The notes under the pieces were generated by a model. The model had not been told where the DNA came from. It did not search any database and worked only from the letters and a program-made list of their open reading frames with translations. Position numbers and translations under genes: made by a program. DNA of 64,000 nt from Candidatus Woesearchaeota archaeon. GTDB lineage: Archaea > Nanobdellota > Nanobdellia > Woesearchaeales > GW2011-AR9. Below are positions 2,376-53,449 of this stretch, one piece after another. Location: the NCBI GenBank assembly GCA_016185625.1, contig JACPND010000033.1:1496-65495 (forward strand). The letters are read 5' to 3'. Each line of letters begins with the position of its first letter. The stretch's first letter is position 1.

Positions 2376-2557
2376 GGCTTTGTGTAAAAAGTCACTTTGT
2401 TTAGGGGTGCAGTGCCTGTTATCGATTTTTCTTTGTTTTTTCTCAGGCATATTTTAGATTTCTCGGATTAAAATCGATTCCTAACTTTGTCTTACGAATC
2501 GACGAATCGCAAAGTAACAGGCACTTCTTCGCATCCCCCTACTTTTTACACAAAGCC
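2376..2557. mobile_element. MITE-like element, family A (182 bp)
   Basis: 17-bp terminal inverted repeats GGCTTTGTGTAAAAAGT / ACTTTTTACACAAAGCC; internal long imperfect palindrome; flanked by 9-bp near-identical direct repeat CAATTCGTC / CAATTCATC. Confidence 0.55.
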
Positions 2558-2635
2558 CAATTCATCTTAAACTTTTGTGTTTTAAGCTTATGCTGATACT
2601 GACTTTAAATGGAAAACGCAAAAGCTGAATCATCG

Positions 2636-2793
2636 GCACTATCCAAAAAGTGAGTGATAGCAGGCCGTCTGACCAACCAAAAACCAGATCCATTTTAGGA
2701 GGTCTGAATAGTTTTTGGCCATTAACTAGGGCATATTGTCCTTTTGGTCAGACACTTACTGGCCAAGCCATCACTCACAAAACAGATAGCGCC
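2636..2793. mobile_element. MITE-like element, family B (158 bp, complete short copy)
   Basis: ~24-bp TIRs GGCACTATCC..GTGAGTGAT / ATCACTCACAAAACAGATAGCGCC; internal palindrome (GTCTGACCAA / TTGGTCAGAC); perfect 8-9-bp target-site duplication GAATCATC(G) on both flanks. Confidence 0.7.
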
Positions 2794-4593: not shown

Positions 4594-4852
4594 GGGCACC
4601 TCGTTTTTGTGGGCAACTGGGAACAGGTTTATATGACTTGTGGTATATATTAAGTCTACCTGCTGGCCGTTAGCTTCGTGCTTTCCTTGCTTGGCATCTG
4701 GTCCAAAAAAGGTTTTTTTATCTCCAAGAAAGCGCCATCTAATTCTCATTAACAAAAGTAATTCTCAGCTAACTTCTTGGCCTAGCAGGCAGACTCAACT
4801 TAATAGACGTCTTGTGCAAAGGTTTATAAATACGCTCTGGGGTGGGAGAAGC

Positions 4853-5164
4853 ATGCCAGAACAAGTTGCCGAAGAAATCATCCGTGTACGTCTGCCTATA
4901 GGACAAGAAGTGCTGGGCATCGTGCAGCAGCGCCTCGGTGGCAGCCGGATGCGCGTGACCTGCCTGGATGGAAAAGAGCGCATCTGTCGGATTCCGGGAA
5001 GACTGCGCCGGGCCTTGTGGGTGCGTGAAAATGATGTGGTTATTGTTGAACCATGGGAACTGGGCGGCGACGAGAAAGGCGACGTGGTGCATAAGTATCG
5101 CGGAAAAACAGAAGTGGAATTCTTGCGCAAAAGGGGATATCTTAAAGGATTGGAAGAATTGTAG
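4853..5164 (+). CDS. eif1a: translation initiation factor 1A (aIF-1A/eIF1A)
   Basis: S1-like OB-fold protein, RVRLPIGQEVLGIVQQRLGGSRMRVTCLDGKERICRIPGRLRRALWVRENDVVIV; start at the Met of MPEQVAEE inside the longer ORF 4640..5164. Confidence 0.9.
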   Translation: MPEQVAEEIIRVRLPIGQEVLGIVQQRLGGSRMRVTCLDGKERICRIPGRLRRALWVRENDVVIVEPWELGGDEKGDVVHKYRGKTEVEFLRKRGYLKGLEEL

Positions 5165-5319
5165 ATTAGAAAGATTGGGCACTGTCCGTTTTGTGAGTGA
5201 TGTGCCGATGTGTGCAGTGAGGGAGAAGGCATAATGCTGTTCGGAGGTTGGATTAGCACTATAAACGCAGCGAGATGCTGTGAAATCACTACGATTAATC
5301 CACCAGAACTGCGGCACAG

Positions 5320-5399
5320 CAGTCACTCACAAGATGAGGCAACGACCTCATCTGTGCACCAGTGAAGTAGTTTCTTTACTTTGTGTTTTGGATAGTGCC
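5320..5399. repeat. fragment of MITE family B
   Basis: Contains CACTCACAAG ... GGCAACGACC ... GAAGTAGTTTCTT ... GTTTTGGATAGTGCC blocks shared with copies at 2636, 6841, 18293, 49228. Confidence 0.4.
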
Positions 5400-6840: not shown

Positions 6841-7050
6841 GGCACTACGGTTTTGTGAGTGATGGCTAGGCAATGTGTGAGCCGAGACGGGAAACCTATC
6901 CCGTCTTGCAACGATCCCTTCTTGCGTCAGCGTTCGATGTACACGTCAAAAGCGAGAGAGGGTCACTGCGTTCTCTAGTTACTTACACTTCGTTCCAGCA
7001 ACAGATGGCTGTGCTTCACTTCAGGAAGCTGAAGTATCACTCAAGAATTC
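6841..7050. repeat. MITE family B, long variant (degenerate copy)
   Basis: Begins with TIR GGCACTACGGTTTTGTGAGTGAT; shares GGGAAACCTATCCC.TCTTGCG...GTGCTTCACTTCAG.AAGC blocks with the 36840 copy. Confidence 0.5.
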
Positions 7051-7343
7051 TACCGTATCGGTATCCTCAGGAACTTCTTGCATTCGAAACAGGAAATGAT
7101 CACTTTCCCGCCACGGGTTCGTATTCTCACATTCACCCCTGGCATTAAGTATTTATAACAATGCTTACAGAAACACCGCTTTAATTCTTTAGGGATCCGC
7201 ATCCGGTTCTTCATGGCGATTTTTCTGGCAAGAGTGACGTAACGATTGGCTAAAGCTTGGTCAGAAGAGAAGGATTGCTGGGCTAAAGTAAAGAGGTCAT
7301 TAATCTTTTCTAAAGCAGTATCCTTATTTTTAATCGGTTTCAT
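7050..7343 (-). CDS. rnp4: RNase P protein subunit Rpp21/Rpr2
   Basis: C-terminal zinc ribbon CFCKHC...CFECKKF with basic N-terminus typical of Rpr2. Confidence 0.75.
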   Translation of the reverse strand: MKPIKNKDTALEKINDLFTLAQQSFSSDQALANRYVTLARKIAMKNRMRIPKELKRCFCKHCYKYLMPGVNVRIRTRGGKVIISCFECKKFLRIPIR

Positions 7344-18251: not shown

Positions 18252-18292
18252 GGACGTTTAGTTTAGTGTGCGCTTTTTAAAGGTTTCGCCAA

Positions 18293-18640
18293 TCGAGCAC
18301 TATCCGTTTTGGGATGATAGTAGCGCCAAGACACAAAATGTGGTCGTTGCCACATTGGTGCACAAACGAAGTAGTTTCTTCGTTTCGTGTGTAGCTGAAG
18401 CAGAGCTATAGTACAGGAACAAGTCCGATTTTCTTCTGAAATTCCAATCGTAGCGGAAAATCGGCTTCAGCGACGCAGAATGGGATTTCCGTCCCATTTG
18501 CGCAGAAGGGGAAACTACCCCTTCTTGCGCCGGAGGGAAAACTATCCCTCCGAGCGGAATATCCCTTCGTGCGTTCTCTGTAAGAGACATCCCTCTGTCA
18601 GCTCGATGTTAAAATCGAAGAAGCTCAATTTTAATGATGG
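18293..18640. mobile_element. MITE family B, long variant
   Basis: Starts with TIR GCACTATCCGTTTTGGGATGAT; ~96% identical over ~110 bp (then ~85% for ~40 more) to the reverse complement of 49330..49478; internal self-complementary GGGAAACTACCCCTTCTTGCGCCGGAGGGAAAACTATCCCTCC blocks. Confidence 0.6.
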
Positions 18641-18687
18641 TAGTGCTTCACATTACTGAAGTATTACGATTTCATCTGGCCCATACA

Positions 18688-36745: not shown

Positions 36746-36839
36746 GATAGTGAAGAAGAAGAAGAAGACAGAACTTTAAATGTATTATTGTTGGAGATTA
36801 TGGAGATTTGGCAATACTTTAGCAATATGAAGCACCACC

Positions 36840-37170
36840 ATCCTAAGATCGAGCTCTCTCAATAAATACCTCGAGCCGACAAGAGGGTTGTCTGTTGCTG
36901 ACAAGCAACTGTTACCGTTAGGTAACTCACGAACGCTAGTGACTTGACACGAACGGAGCATAGCGGAGTGACTAGACTCACGGAAAACGCACGAAGGGAT
37001 ATTCCGCCCGGAGGGATAGTTCACTGAGTGGGATAGTTTTCCCACTGGTGCGCCAAAGGGAAACCTATCCCTTCTTGCGTCAGCTCTCGACCTATACTTC
37101 GAAAGCGAGAAGAGGGTGGTGCTTCACTTCAGAAAGCCAAAGTATTACAAGATTCGTTTGAGAATTACTT
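36840..37170. repeat. mosaic copy of MITE family B long variant plus repeat-D block
   Basis: Contains GGGAAACCTATCCCTTCTTGCGTCAGC...GTGCTTCACTTCAGAAAGCC (as at 6880-7050), a reverse-complement of the 18515-18590 block, and GTAACTCACGAACG.TAGTGACTTG (rc of repeat D). Confidence 0.5.
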
Positions 37171-38205: not shown

Positions 38206-38817
38206 TTGGGCATGGAATTACTTTTAACCTCAACAGGACTGGCAAATGAAATAATCAGAGACCAATTTCTCAAACTAATTAGGAAAGCAGTTTCCACCAT
38301 CAAAGTCATCTTTATCCCCACTGCTTCCAGAACTAAAGAAAAATTAAATTACGTTCAAGAAGCAAAACAAGAACTCCTTGATCTGGGTGTTCTGCGTAAA
38401 AACATTAAAACTGTAAATCTGGATACAAAAGTAAATTACGCTGAAGTGAAAAACTATGATGTGATCTATGTTTGTGGAGGAAATACGTTCTTTTTGCTGA
38501 AAAAGGTAAGAGAGACAGGTTTTGATAAAATTATTGCCAAATTTGTCCACGAGAATAAATTATATTTTGGTGTAAGCGCCGGAAGTATTATCGTTTGTCC
38601 AAACATAGAAATAGCCAGCCTGGGAGACGAGAATGATGTTGGGCTTAAAGATTTGACGGGGCTGGGATTAGTTGATGTCGTGGTTTCTCCACAGTATAAT
38701 ATCAAAGAAAAATCGTATTTGTTTAGCATCGTAAGGTCAAAATCCCATCCCTATCAACTGCGAGAGCCGCAGGGGGACTTGCCCCATCCGGGGATGCGGC
38801 TCCAGCGATATTTATAG
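38206..38817 (+). CDS. peptidase S51 (dipeptidase E-like) class-I glutamine-amidotransferase-fold protein
   Basis: VIYVCGGNTFFLLKKVRETGFDKII...YFGVSAGSIIVCPNIE (Ser-His-Glu S51 arrangement). Confidence 0.6.
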   Translation: MGMELLLTSTGLANEIIRDQFLKLIRKAVSTIKVIFIPTASRTKEKLNYVQEAKQELLDLGVLRKNIKTVNLDTKVNYAEVKNYDVIYVCGGNTFFLLKKVRETGFDKIIAKFVHENKLYFGVSAGSIIVCPNIEIASLGDENDVGLKDLTGLGLVDVVVSPQYNIKEKSYLFSIVRSKSHPYQLREPQGDLPHPGMRLQRYL

Positions 38818-38962
38818 ACGAGGATTTTGAAGATGCTAAACAAATACGAAAAATCAATAATTGAGAAATTCAAGCAAAAATCTAAAATACCCCTAATTAC
38901 TATAACTGATAATCAGGCTTTGCTCGTTACAGATAGTGACAAGAAATTGATGGAGGCATGAC

Positions 38963-49227: not shown

Positions 49228-49478
49228 TTGCTTAAAAATTCAACTAATCAACGCAAAGATTCGTACACCCCACGAATCTACAGACCTAGCCGCAGCGTAG
49301 TCCGGAGAGGTTCAATCAAAATCCTCTATAGAAGAAAATCGGATTTGTTCCCACACTATGGCTCTGCTTCAGCTACACACGAAACGAAGAAACTACTTTG
49401 TTTGTGCAACAATGTGGCAACGACCACATTTTGTGTCTTGGCGCTACTATCACTCACAAAACGGATAGTGCCGTTTTG
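49228..49478. mobile_element. MITE family B, long variant (inverted relative to the 18293 copy)
   Basis: Ends ATCACTCACAAAACGGATAGTGCC; ~96% identical over ~110 bp to the reverse complement of 18293-18410. Confidence 0.6.
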
Positions 49479-49516
49479 AGCAAAACTTTATAAACAAACC
49501 CCCATCCAGAAAGAAA

Positions 49517-52651: not shown

Positions 52652-52875
52652 TGGAGATTGTGAGAAAGAGGCTTATTTAAAAAGGCTTCGCTTTTTTGTA
52701 ATACTTCACTATTCTGAAGTTCAGCAAAGTCGTCTTGGCCGTTAGTCAAGCCGTCTCGTTCGTGACATTCCTGACGGAACGCGACGCCGATTTCTAGATG
52801 TGTTTATGGCCAGAAAATAGCAGATTTCAGTACCCTCTGGAAAATTCGTGACCGCCTGAAAGAGGCAGGAAAAGA

Positions 52876-53209
52876 AGAAAAAATTTGGAATGCACTTTAA
52901 CATCAGTTAAATCAAAAAGGATATTTTGGTACAAAGCTTAAAGCTAAAGATGTTCTGGATAAAACAATGGTAAAAGTGGGAAGAGGCCAGGAACTTACTC
53001 TGAGAGAGATTGAAAGAAATAAAAAAATATCTCATGTTCGCGCACCAGGGGAAAGGCCATTTAGCGTGATGAAAAGAATATTTCATGGCGGCCGTACATT
53101 TGTGAAAACACTTCATCGTGTGTCTATCAAAGAAATGTTCAGATGTTTTGCATTTGATTTGTATCAGCTGGTGACACTCAGGCGCAGAGAGCTAGCGAAA
53201 GCTCTCTGA
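52876..53209 (+). pseudogene. IS5-family DDE transposase, C-terminal fragment only
   Basis: ...GYFGTKLKAKDVLDKT...ISHVRAPGERPFSVMKRIFHGGRTFVKTLHRVSIKEMFRCFAFDLYQLV matches IS5 C-terminal consensus (VEHxFGxxKRxFGxxKxRYRGL....LxxNLxRL); upstream frames broken by stops. Confidence 0.6.
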
Positions 53210-53449
53210 GAACATTGAAAAAAGAGAAAATGAAGAAAAAGATGAAGAGTAGAGAAGAAAAAGAGAGAATTCTACACTGAATTTAAAGAAAAATCAATTT
53301 TATCTCGAAAAAGAGGGGTTATTCAAAGCATTTTATATGACTGGAGTGCCTATGCCTTGCACGGCAATAGGTATAACTTCACAGAAACTATGCCGGATCA
53401 GATTGAACACGGATGATGAGGATCAGAAATATAAAATAAAAAAATAGGC

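Follow-up and report, generated by a model that had tools for sequence, protein, structure and literature searches.

Two Families of Palindromic MITE-Like Elements Downstream of pyrG in a Woesearchaeota Archaeon

Introduction

Small mobile elements that carry no transposase gene of their own are common in some archaea: in a MITE-Tracker survey, a Woesearchaea genome was among the most MITE-dense, with 105 per Mb (PMC11602168). The MITEs of that survey, hosted by DPANN archaea including Woesearchaeota, are small, bounded by terminal inverted repeats (TIRs), flanked by target-site duplications, intergenic, present in multiple copies and devoid of a transposase, and the elements described here resemble them in these respects, probably also in copy number. 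Among the insertion sequences (ISs) that might supply a transposase, the IS903 group has a 9-bp target duplication as its hallmark (PMC3281130). Its inverted repeats start with GGC. IS903 measures 1.05 kb and has one gene, for a transposase of about 307 aa. In IS903B, a copy of which was read directly, the inverted repeat is GGCTTTGTTGAATAAATCG and the duplication is 9 bp long.

A further point of comparison is provided by ERIC, Correia/NEMIS and RUP. These are imperfect palindromes over the whole element, they lie near gene ends, in places that allow co-transcription, and their stems are kept across diverged copies; RNA-level effects have been shown for them experimentally. They differ from the elements described here, A and B, in their hosts, ends and duplication lengths, and A and B show no strand bias.

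Elements A and B lie side by side in a 64-kb stretch of DNA (the window, which means the whole stretch analysed) from a Candidatus Woesearchaeota archaeon of groundwater. With a probability of about 0.9, they are small non-coding mobile elements (MITEs) belonging to two families. Each is small (MITEs being under about 600 bp) and has no transposase gene, each has TIRs, and in each family the duplication has a constant length and a sequence specific to the copy. The TIR of A is shared with autonomous elements that encode a transposase (L025 and L073); that of B is not. As such, A and B are an ordinary feature of MITE-rich genomes.

The pyrG Locus

The window has a G+C content of 45% and contains archaeal genes for aIF-1A and the ribosomal proteins S19e, S3Ae and S8e. 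The gene for CTP synthase, pyrG, occupies 668-2275, and its product is 79-86% identical at the amino acid level to proteins from Candidatus Woesearchaeota MAGs, which points to a Woesearchaeota-like DPANN host. The next gene starts at 2853 and encodes a membrane protein of 299 aa without a Pfam match. A sequence-only reading of this DNA had placed two MITE-like elements in the spacer after pyrG, and both are indeed found there, by reading the sequence as well as with a repeat finder. The spacer that holds them is 577 bp long; in the pyrG relatives with 79-86% identity, only 38-93 bp follow the gene, and no element is found there. An orthologous empty site was sought among close homologues of pyrG (eight listed, four looked up). 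None was found in the relatives looked up, since synteny after pyrG has been lost and a different gene follows.

How could the two elements have arrived there? A and B would be non-autonomous DNA transposons, unrelated in detail, that inserted independently between pyrG and the membrane-protein gene. Each would be made up of a short palindromic body without genes, enclosed by the two end repeats at which the transposase of an IS binds. A DDE transposase encoded elsewhere would bind both TIRs and excise or copy the element, insertion would take place at a staggered cut, and repair would leave a direct repeat of 9 bp (A) or 8/9 bp (B). The transposase acting on A would belong to a very large archaeal clan, which is IS5-family and IS903-like, with proteins of about 400-415 aa and an N-terminal SWIM zinc finger; that acting on B would be a relative. 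The insertions may have an effect on pyrG termination or on the promoter of the neighboring gene; such an effect, like their timing, is a matter of inference.

Element A and Its Family

The features of element A are as follows.

2367-2375: left target-site duplication of A, CAATTCGTC, an 8/9 match to 2558-2566
2376-2557: element A, a probable A-type MITE of 182 bp (sequence reading, repeat finder)
2376-2392 and 2541-2557: TIRs of A, GGCTTTGTGTAAAAAGT and ACTTTTTACACAAAGCC, perfect over 17/17 nt
2404-2429 and 2470-2535: inner arms of A, also largely complementary
2558-2566: right target-site duplication of A, CAATTCATC

The 17-bp TIRs and 9-bp flanking repeats that had been reported for A are thus both present, the former perfect and the latter matching at eight of nine positions. 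If a distance of 30-600 nt between the arms is allowed, the window holds two perfect inverted repeats of 17 nt or more (in A and at 38.7 kb), whereas 100 first-order Markov resamples of it hold none. For flanks that match at 8/9 positions, the probability by chance is about 1e-4. No ORF of at least 40 aa is listed within A.

One genome per prokaryotic species was scanned for A-type ends, using an exact pattern of A's TIR with three degenerate bases. The 17-mer was found at 31 genome loci, mostly archaeal (Woese-, Pace- and Aenigmatarchaeota, Methanosarcinales, Nitrososphaera and Thermoplasmata). At L007, L010, L018, L030, L031 and L034, the TIR bounds small elements whose homology to A extends further inward. 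Flanks that match at all nine positions are found at L007 (TCTTCTTTC), L009 (GGAAAAATT) and L028 (GACGCCAGC), and also around the autonomous A-type elements L025 (GGTCAATTT) and L073 (AACGCAACC). The match is 8/9 in L013, as in A itself, and 7/9 in L016 and L018. The 9-bp flanking sequence differs at each copy with paired ends. That flanking repeats should recur at other copies was an expectation of the sequence-only reading, and they do so, with unrelated sequences, in the A-type as well as in the B-type family. The same reading had taken the transpositions to be recent, which holds in a relative sense only: one position of A's duplication fails to match, and three positions in the ends of B differ from the family consensus.

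A second line of evidence comes from assembly breaks. Logan is a de Bruijn assembly with k=31, in which a contig that starts in unique sequence ends k-2 bases after entering a repeat. Four Logan contigs carry an identical pyrG protein, and the three listed, from three sequencing runs, all end at window position 2404, which is 29 nt inside A. With k=31, this puts the repeat boundary at 2375/2376, the left terminus of A. (A polymorphism between occupied and empty sites would have ended the contigs at 2375, not at 2404.) The contig ends suggest that A, of which the window holds one copy, is multi-copy in this organism. For Logan contigs that carry the downstream gene, the first position is 2749, in the right arm of B. 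This start is likewise consistent with a repeat, the implied boundary at 2778 being 15 nt inside the end of B.

The A-Type Transposase

Two autonomous elements bounded by A's TIR were found. One, from Aenigmatarchaeota (L025, 125-5533), is 5409 bp long and has A's TIR at both ends, with subterminal repeats TGTGTAWAAAGT; the other (L073, 1402-3763) is compact, with 2362 bp, and encodes a 414-aa homologue of the L025 transposase. Both carry subterminal TGTGTAAAAAGT-like repeats. The inner arms of A bear no resemblance to the subterminal regions of either element.

The L025 transposase has 400 aa and a DDE_Tnp_1 match (8.5e-17, 62 bits, with a cut-off of 23), while its SWIM match is weak (E 0.009) and below the Pfam cut-off. 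On the NCBIfam model NF033579 (IS5 family), it scores 136.9 bits, compared to a cut-off of 140. The best bacterial plasmid matches to the A-type transposase (by tblastn) are the transposases of IS903 and IS903B, with about 25% identity over more than 80% of the length. There are at least 6701 homologues at E<=1e-20, several of them annotated as Woesearchaeota.

How close is the likeness to IS903? A's TIR is identical to the IS903B inverted repeat at 13 of 17 positions, including the first 8 nt (the GGCTTTGT start), and the A-type shares with the IS903 group its 9-bp target duplication and GGC-starting inverted repeats. The archaeal partner transposase likewise has a DDE_Tnp_1 core and NF033579 as its best curated match. 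However, it has a SWIM-type N-terminus, is only about 25% identical to the IS903 transposase and falls 3 bits under the NF033579 cut-off. The archaeal autonomous elements, at 2.4-5.4 kb and with transposases of about 400-415 aa, also differ from IS903 in carrying extra ORFs or cargo and several subterminal repeats, and element A, unlike IS903, is a 182-bp palindrome without a gene. Because of these differences in size, SWIM domain, subterminal repeats and cargo, the A-type is better described as IS903-like than as a member of the IS903 group proper. Neither the exact string of A's TIR nor the SWIM-finger IS903-like clan under that end sequence was found in the searchable literature.

The window itself contains no transposase of A or B type. 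That A's TIR is common to autonomous elements agrees with the proposal that a transposase acts in trans, but none able to do so was found in the window; in this particular genome, A and B would both be mobilized in trans. Around the Woesearchaeota transposase loci L064-L071 (including L064 and L070), no A-type TIR was found within ±1.5 kb, so that those elements must be of greater size or end differently. L020 holds a copy truncated at its 5' end.

The SWIM-plus-DDE IS903-like transposons carry or adjoin cargo genes. An N6 DNA methylase with a specificity subunit is found in L025 and in L069/L070, a MazE-like antitoxin is another example of cargo, and a Fic gene adjoins L073.

The sequence-only reading had also proposed a comparison with an IS5-type fragment at 52.9 kb. 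This is an internally deleted IS5-group remnant (52750-53210) that adjoins the S3Ae gene and is the only IS remnant in the window; it combines a DUF772-like N-terminal piece with a C-terminal DDE piece (NF033581, 52 bits) in the same frame, with one stop codon in between. It was rejected as the parent of A: it belongs to another subgroup (NF033581), has no similarity to the A-type transposase and is unrelated to the IS903-like parent of A.

Element B and Its Family

The features of element B are as follows.

2627-2634: left target-site duplication of B, GAATCATC; 9 bp counting G2635
2635-2793, plus strand: element B, a probable B-type MITE of 159 bp (repeat finder, B-type family)
2635-2658: A-end TIR of B, GGCACTATCCAAAAAGTGAGTGAT, which is GGCACTATCC-AAAAA-GTGAGTGAT
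2770-2793: T-end TIR of B, ATCACTCACAAAACAGATAGCGCC, with the reverse complement GGCGCTATCT-GTTTT-GTGAGTGAT
2794-2801: right target-site duplication of B, GAATCATC, then G2802

B had been credited with TIRs of about 24 bp. An inverted repeat is present, but it is bipartite rather than continuous, with paired blocks of 10 and 9 bp around a non-complementary center of 5 nt. The duplication at both ends of B is perfect, as had been claimed, with a length of 8 bp, or of 9 bp (GAATCATCG) if the ambiguous G is counted and B starts at 2636; the chance of an 8/8 flank match is about 1.5e-5. The only ORFs that overlap B have 43 and 51 aa, and no longer ORF is found in either element, in agreement with the earlier description of both as palindromes without coding capacity. 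The target sequences of A (CAATTCRTC) and B (GAATCATC) look alike, a likeness that is treated as chance because the targets of other copies share only their A/T-richness.

Metagenomes were scanned with a consensus of B-type ends as the pattern. The family was found at 19 metagenome loci, many from groundwater samples, and no B-type ends were found in the viral collection. Twelve complete copies could be delimited; they are 150-550 bp long, and none encodes a protein. Every one of these has one end of the form GGCACTATCC-GTTTT-GTGAGTGAT and the other of the form GGCACTATCC-NAAAA-GTGAGTGAT, and thus the 5-nt center never pairs. (Since the search pattern required a GTTTT end, only the absence of copies with GTTTT at both ends is informative.) This constant asymmetry could be either inherited or a constraint.

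Including B, perfect 8-bp duplications were found in six B-type copies (among them L037, L041, L043 and L051), all with different sequences, and 7/8 matches in L052 and in copy C in the window. One further base, the terminal G or C if given to the target, matches in 6/6 cases, so that the true duplication length may be 9.

No autonomous B-type element was found in the 19 metagenome loci, in viral contigs or near A-type transposases; where a B end stands alone in the metagenomes (L040 and L042), the genes are ordinary ones. The A-end of B and the TIR of A have a common layout, GGC-N7-AAAAAGT, and it is on account of this layout, together with the similar duplication length, that we propose an IS903-like relative as the parent of B.

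One strand of the B-type elements always has an A-rich 5x5 internal loop (in element B, 2645-2649 / 2779-2783), with the flanking blocks paired.

Further B-type copies were located in the window with a profile of the B-type ends, BLAST and self-comparison. Counting B itself, there are at least five, the further ones all intergenic, compared to one of the A-type.

5178-5399, minus strand: copy C, B-type, 222 bp, downstream of the aIF-1A gene
5178-5201 and 5386-5399: T-end and degenerate A-end of copy C, with flanks AAAGATTG and AAGGATTG (7/8)
6841-7062 (right boundary approximate), plus strand: copy D, B-type, with T-end GGCACTACGGTTTTGTGAGTGAT, then a structured body of about 220 bp
18296-18647 (right boundary approximate), plus strand: copy F, B-type, with degenerate T-end AGCACTATCCGTTTTGGGATGAT
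49330-49472 (inner boundary approximate), minus strand: copy E, B-type, with a consensus T-end at 49449-49472

Copy E sits between an HxlR-like gene and the rpS19e gene. It is 90% identical to copy F over 166 nt (49330-49494 vs 18274-18437).

E and F remain homologous for about 22 nt beyond the B-type terminus, and the metagenome loci L040 and L044 show the same extension. An A-type-like end, GGGTTTGTTTATAAAGT, lies just outside copy E (49485-49501, minus strand). This extension and the adjoining end suggest either nested elements or a longer composite terminus.

Palindromes, Covariation and Alternative Explanations

Why are the arms of A and B so well paired? Both elements fold far better than shuffled sequences on either strand (z -6.6 to -9.6). 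Among five sequences of A, 9 of the 44 predicted pairs show compensatory double changes, compared to 3.3±1.3 in shuffled controls (0/500 reach 9) and 0-3 in slid ones. The corresponding figures for B, also from five sequences, are 12 of 38 predicted pairs, 4.7±1.6 (0/500 reach 12) and 1-4. If a MITE simply decayed neutrally, no such covariation in its inner arms would be expected. The terminal helices do not vary, which is what protein-binding sites would show.

Covariation and folding of this strength are what one might expect if A and B were structured non-coding RNAs (small RNAs, 3'-UTR stabilizers or pyrG terminators), with RNA-level selection preserving the hairpin, and with flanking repeats that are incidental or historical. 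The T5 and T6 runs of A on the pyrG-sense strand, which could be archaeal terminators, would fit the same explanation. However, the folding is equally good on both strands, and arm mismatches across 17 copies are balanced, with 54 G·T and 61 A·C and no strand bias, where selection on RNA from one strand should favor G·U. There is no gathering-score match to Rfam in the window, and even at E<=1 only an unrelated one at 24.07 kb; a tRNA/tmRNA scan likewise found nothing. Moreover, copies are scattered over unrelated loci and occur in both orientations, with fresh target duplications, and conservation is highest in the terminal 17-24 nt, which fits transposase binding and not an RNA core. That A and B are, or have become, structured RNAs is accordingly quite improbable. 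The sequence-only reading had set covarying RNA genes against mobile elements as if one excluded the other. The arms do covary, but they do so in mobile elements, found at unrelated loci with neither an Rfam match nor a strand bias, and the alternative as it was posed is therefore too simple. We read the palindrome as a DNA-level property of mobile elements, and conclude that these are not RNA genes. It could go back to repeated inverted duplication of one arm, the arms could evolve in concert, or the transposition machinery could require it. That the hairpin of the whole element is actively maintained and functional, whether as a foldback DNA substrate for SWIM-finger IS903-like transposases or as co-opted RNA or terminator modules, may be the case but is unlikely. 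If it were so, the A5·A5 internal loop that B-type ends conserve would serve in recognition, and the elements would not be passive deletion derivatives but a branch of IS5-type transposition with a mechanism of its own.

Could A and B instead be full-length ISs that were internally deleted in situ and never moved as small elements? The window does hold one IS remnant with just such a deletion (52.75-53.21 kb), and autonomous A-type elements exist from which A might have been derived. Against this, the inner arms of A are shared by L007, L010, L018, L030, L031 and L034, which are at other loci and have duplications of their own; B-type copies likewise share their interior, elsewhere and with their own duplications; and the inner arms of A are unlike the subterminal regions of L025 and L073. 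Deletion in place thus has very little probability. Least probable of all, to the point of being negligible, is that A and B are chance palindromes or ordinary terminator hairpins and that their flanking repeats are a coincidence. Such hairpins would indeed be intergenic and follow a convergently unremarkable gene, but the resampled windows lack perfect 17-nt inverted repeats, the flank matches have probabilities of 1e-4 and 1.5e-5, and the dozens of homologous copies elsewhere are family evidence that already refutes coincidence. Small mobile elements of two families are what A and B most probably are. Against this stand the lack of either transposase in the window, of an autonomous B-type element in the sources searched and of an orthologous empty site in the relatives looked up, the single A-type copy in the window, the covariation of the inner arms, and the two Woesearchaeota transposase loci (L064 and L070) where no A-type TIR was found within ±1.5 kb.

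Two other kinds of structure were considered and rejected. Archaeal bulge-helix-bulge stems do not apply, as the flanks of A and B are direct repeats, not pairing partners, and the ends match IS termini. The same match of the ends, and the lack of a reverse transcriptase gene nearby, argue against a retron msr/msd.

Significance

As MITEs, A and B together explain why a gap of 577 bp follows pyrG where relatives have less than 100 bp, and why short-read assemblies fragment at this point. They tie a DPANN MITE family to a very abundant clan of SWIM-finger IS903-like elements, sometimes with restriction-modification cargo. The covarying arms pose a small, testable question, namely how palindromic MITEs keep their shape.

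The copies are also useful in flagging spurious ORFs, such as that at 4769-5326 (minus strand). Its product would have 185 aa and no Pfam match. The ORF overlaps copy C as well as the gene for aIF-1A (4640-5164, plus strand), and is unlikely to be a real gene.

Other Repeats in the Window

A third, decayed B-type element that overlaps the pyrG stop could be present at 2257-2367, judging from its sequence. The last codons of pyrG (2264-2275, TCCCAAAAGTGA) equal the core of the B-type A-end, and 2344-2367 resembles the right end of copy C (…ATAGTGCC). The match to the TIR core may be a coincidence, since the C-terminal SQK of the pyrG product is common to the relative P0001.

An element of 299 nt at 36828-37126 folds strongly (MFE -115.8 kcal/mol, z -6.0), with a 15-nt inverted repeat closing it. 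Modules of 45-51 nt are common to this element and copies D (6914-6963) and F (18540-18584), and these modules are G-rich hairpins with AAACYA loops, e.g., GGGAAACCTATCCCTTCTTGCG. The element has no Rfam match, and may belong to a third family of repeats or be a structured RNA with paralogues. Finally, at 38713-38849, perfect arms of 18 nt (TCGTATTTGTTTAGCATC) surround a G+C-rich, hairpin-forming body of 101 nt at the end of a doubtful ORF; this may be another type of palindromic element.
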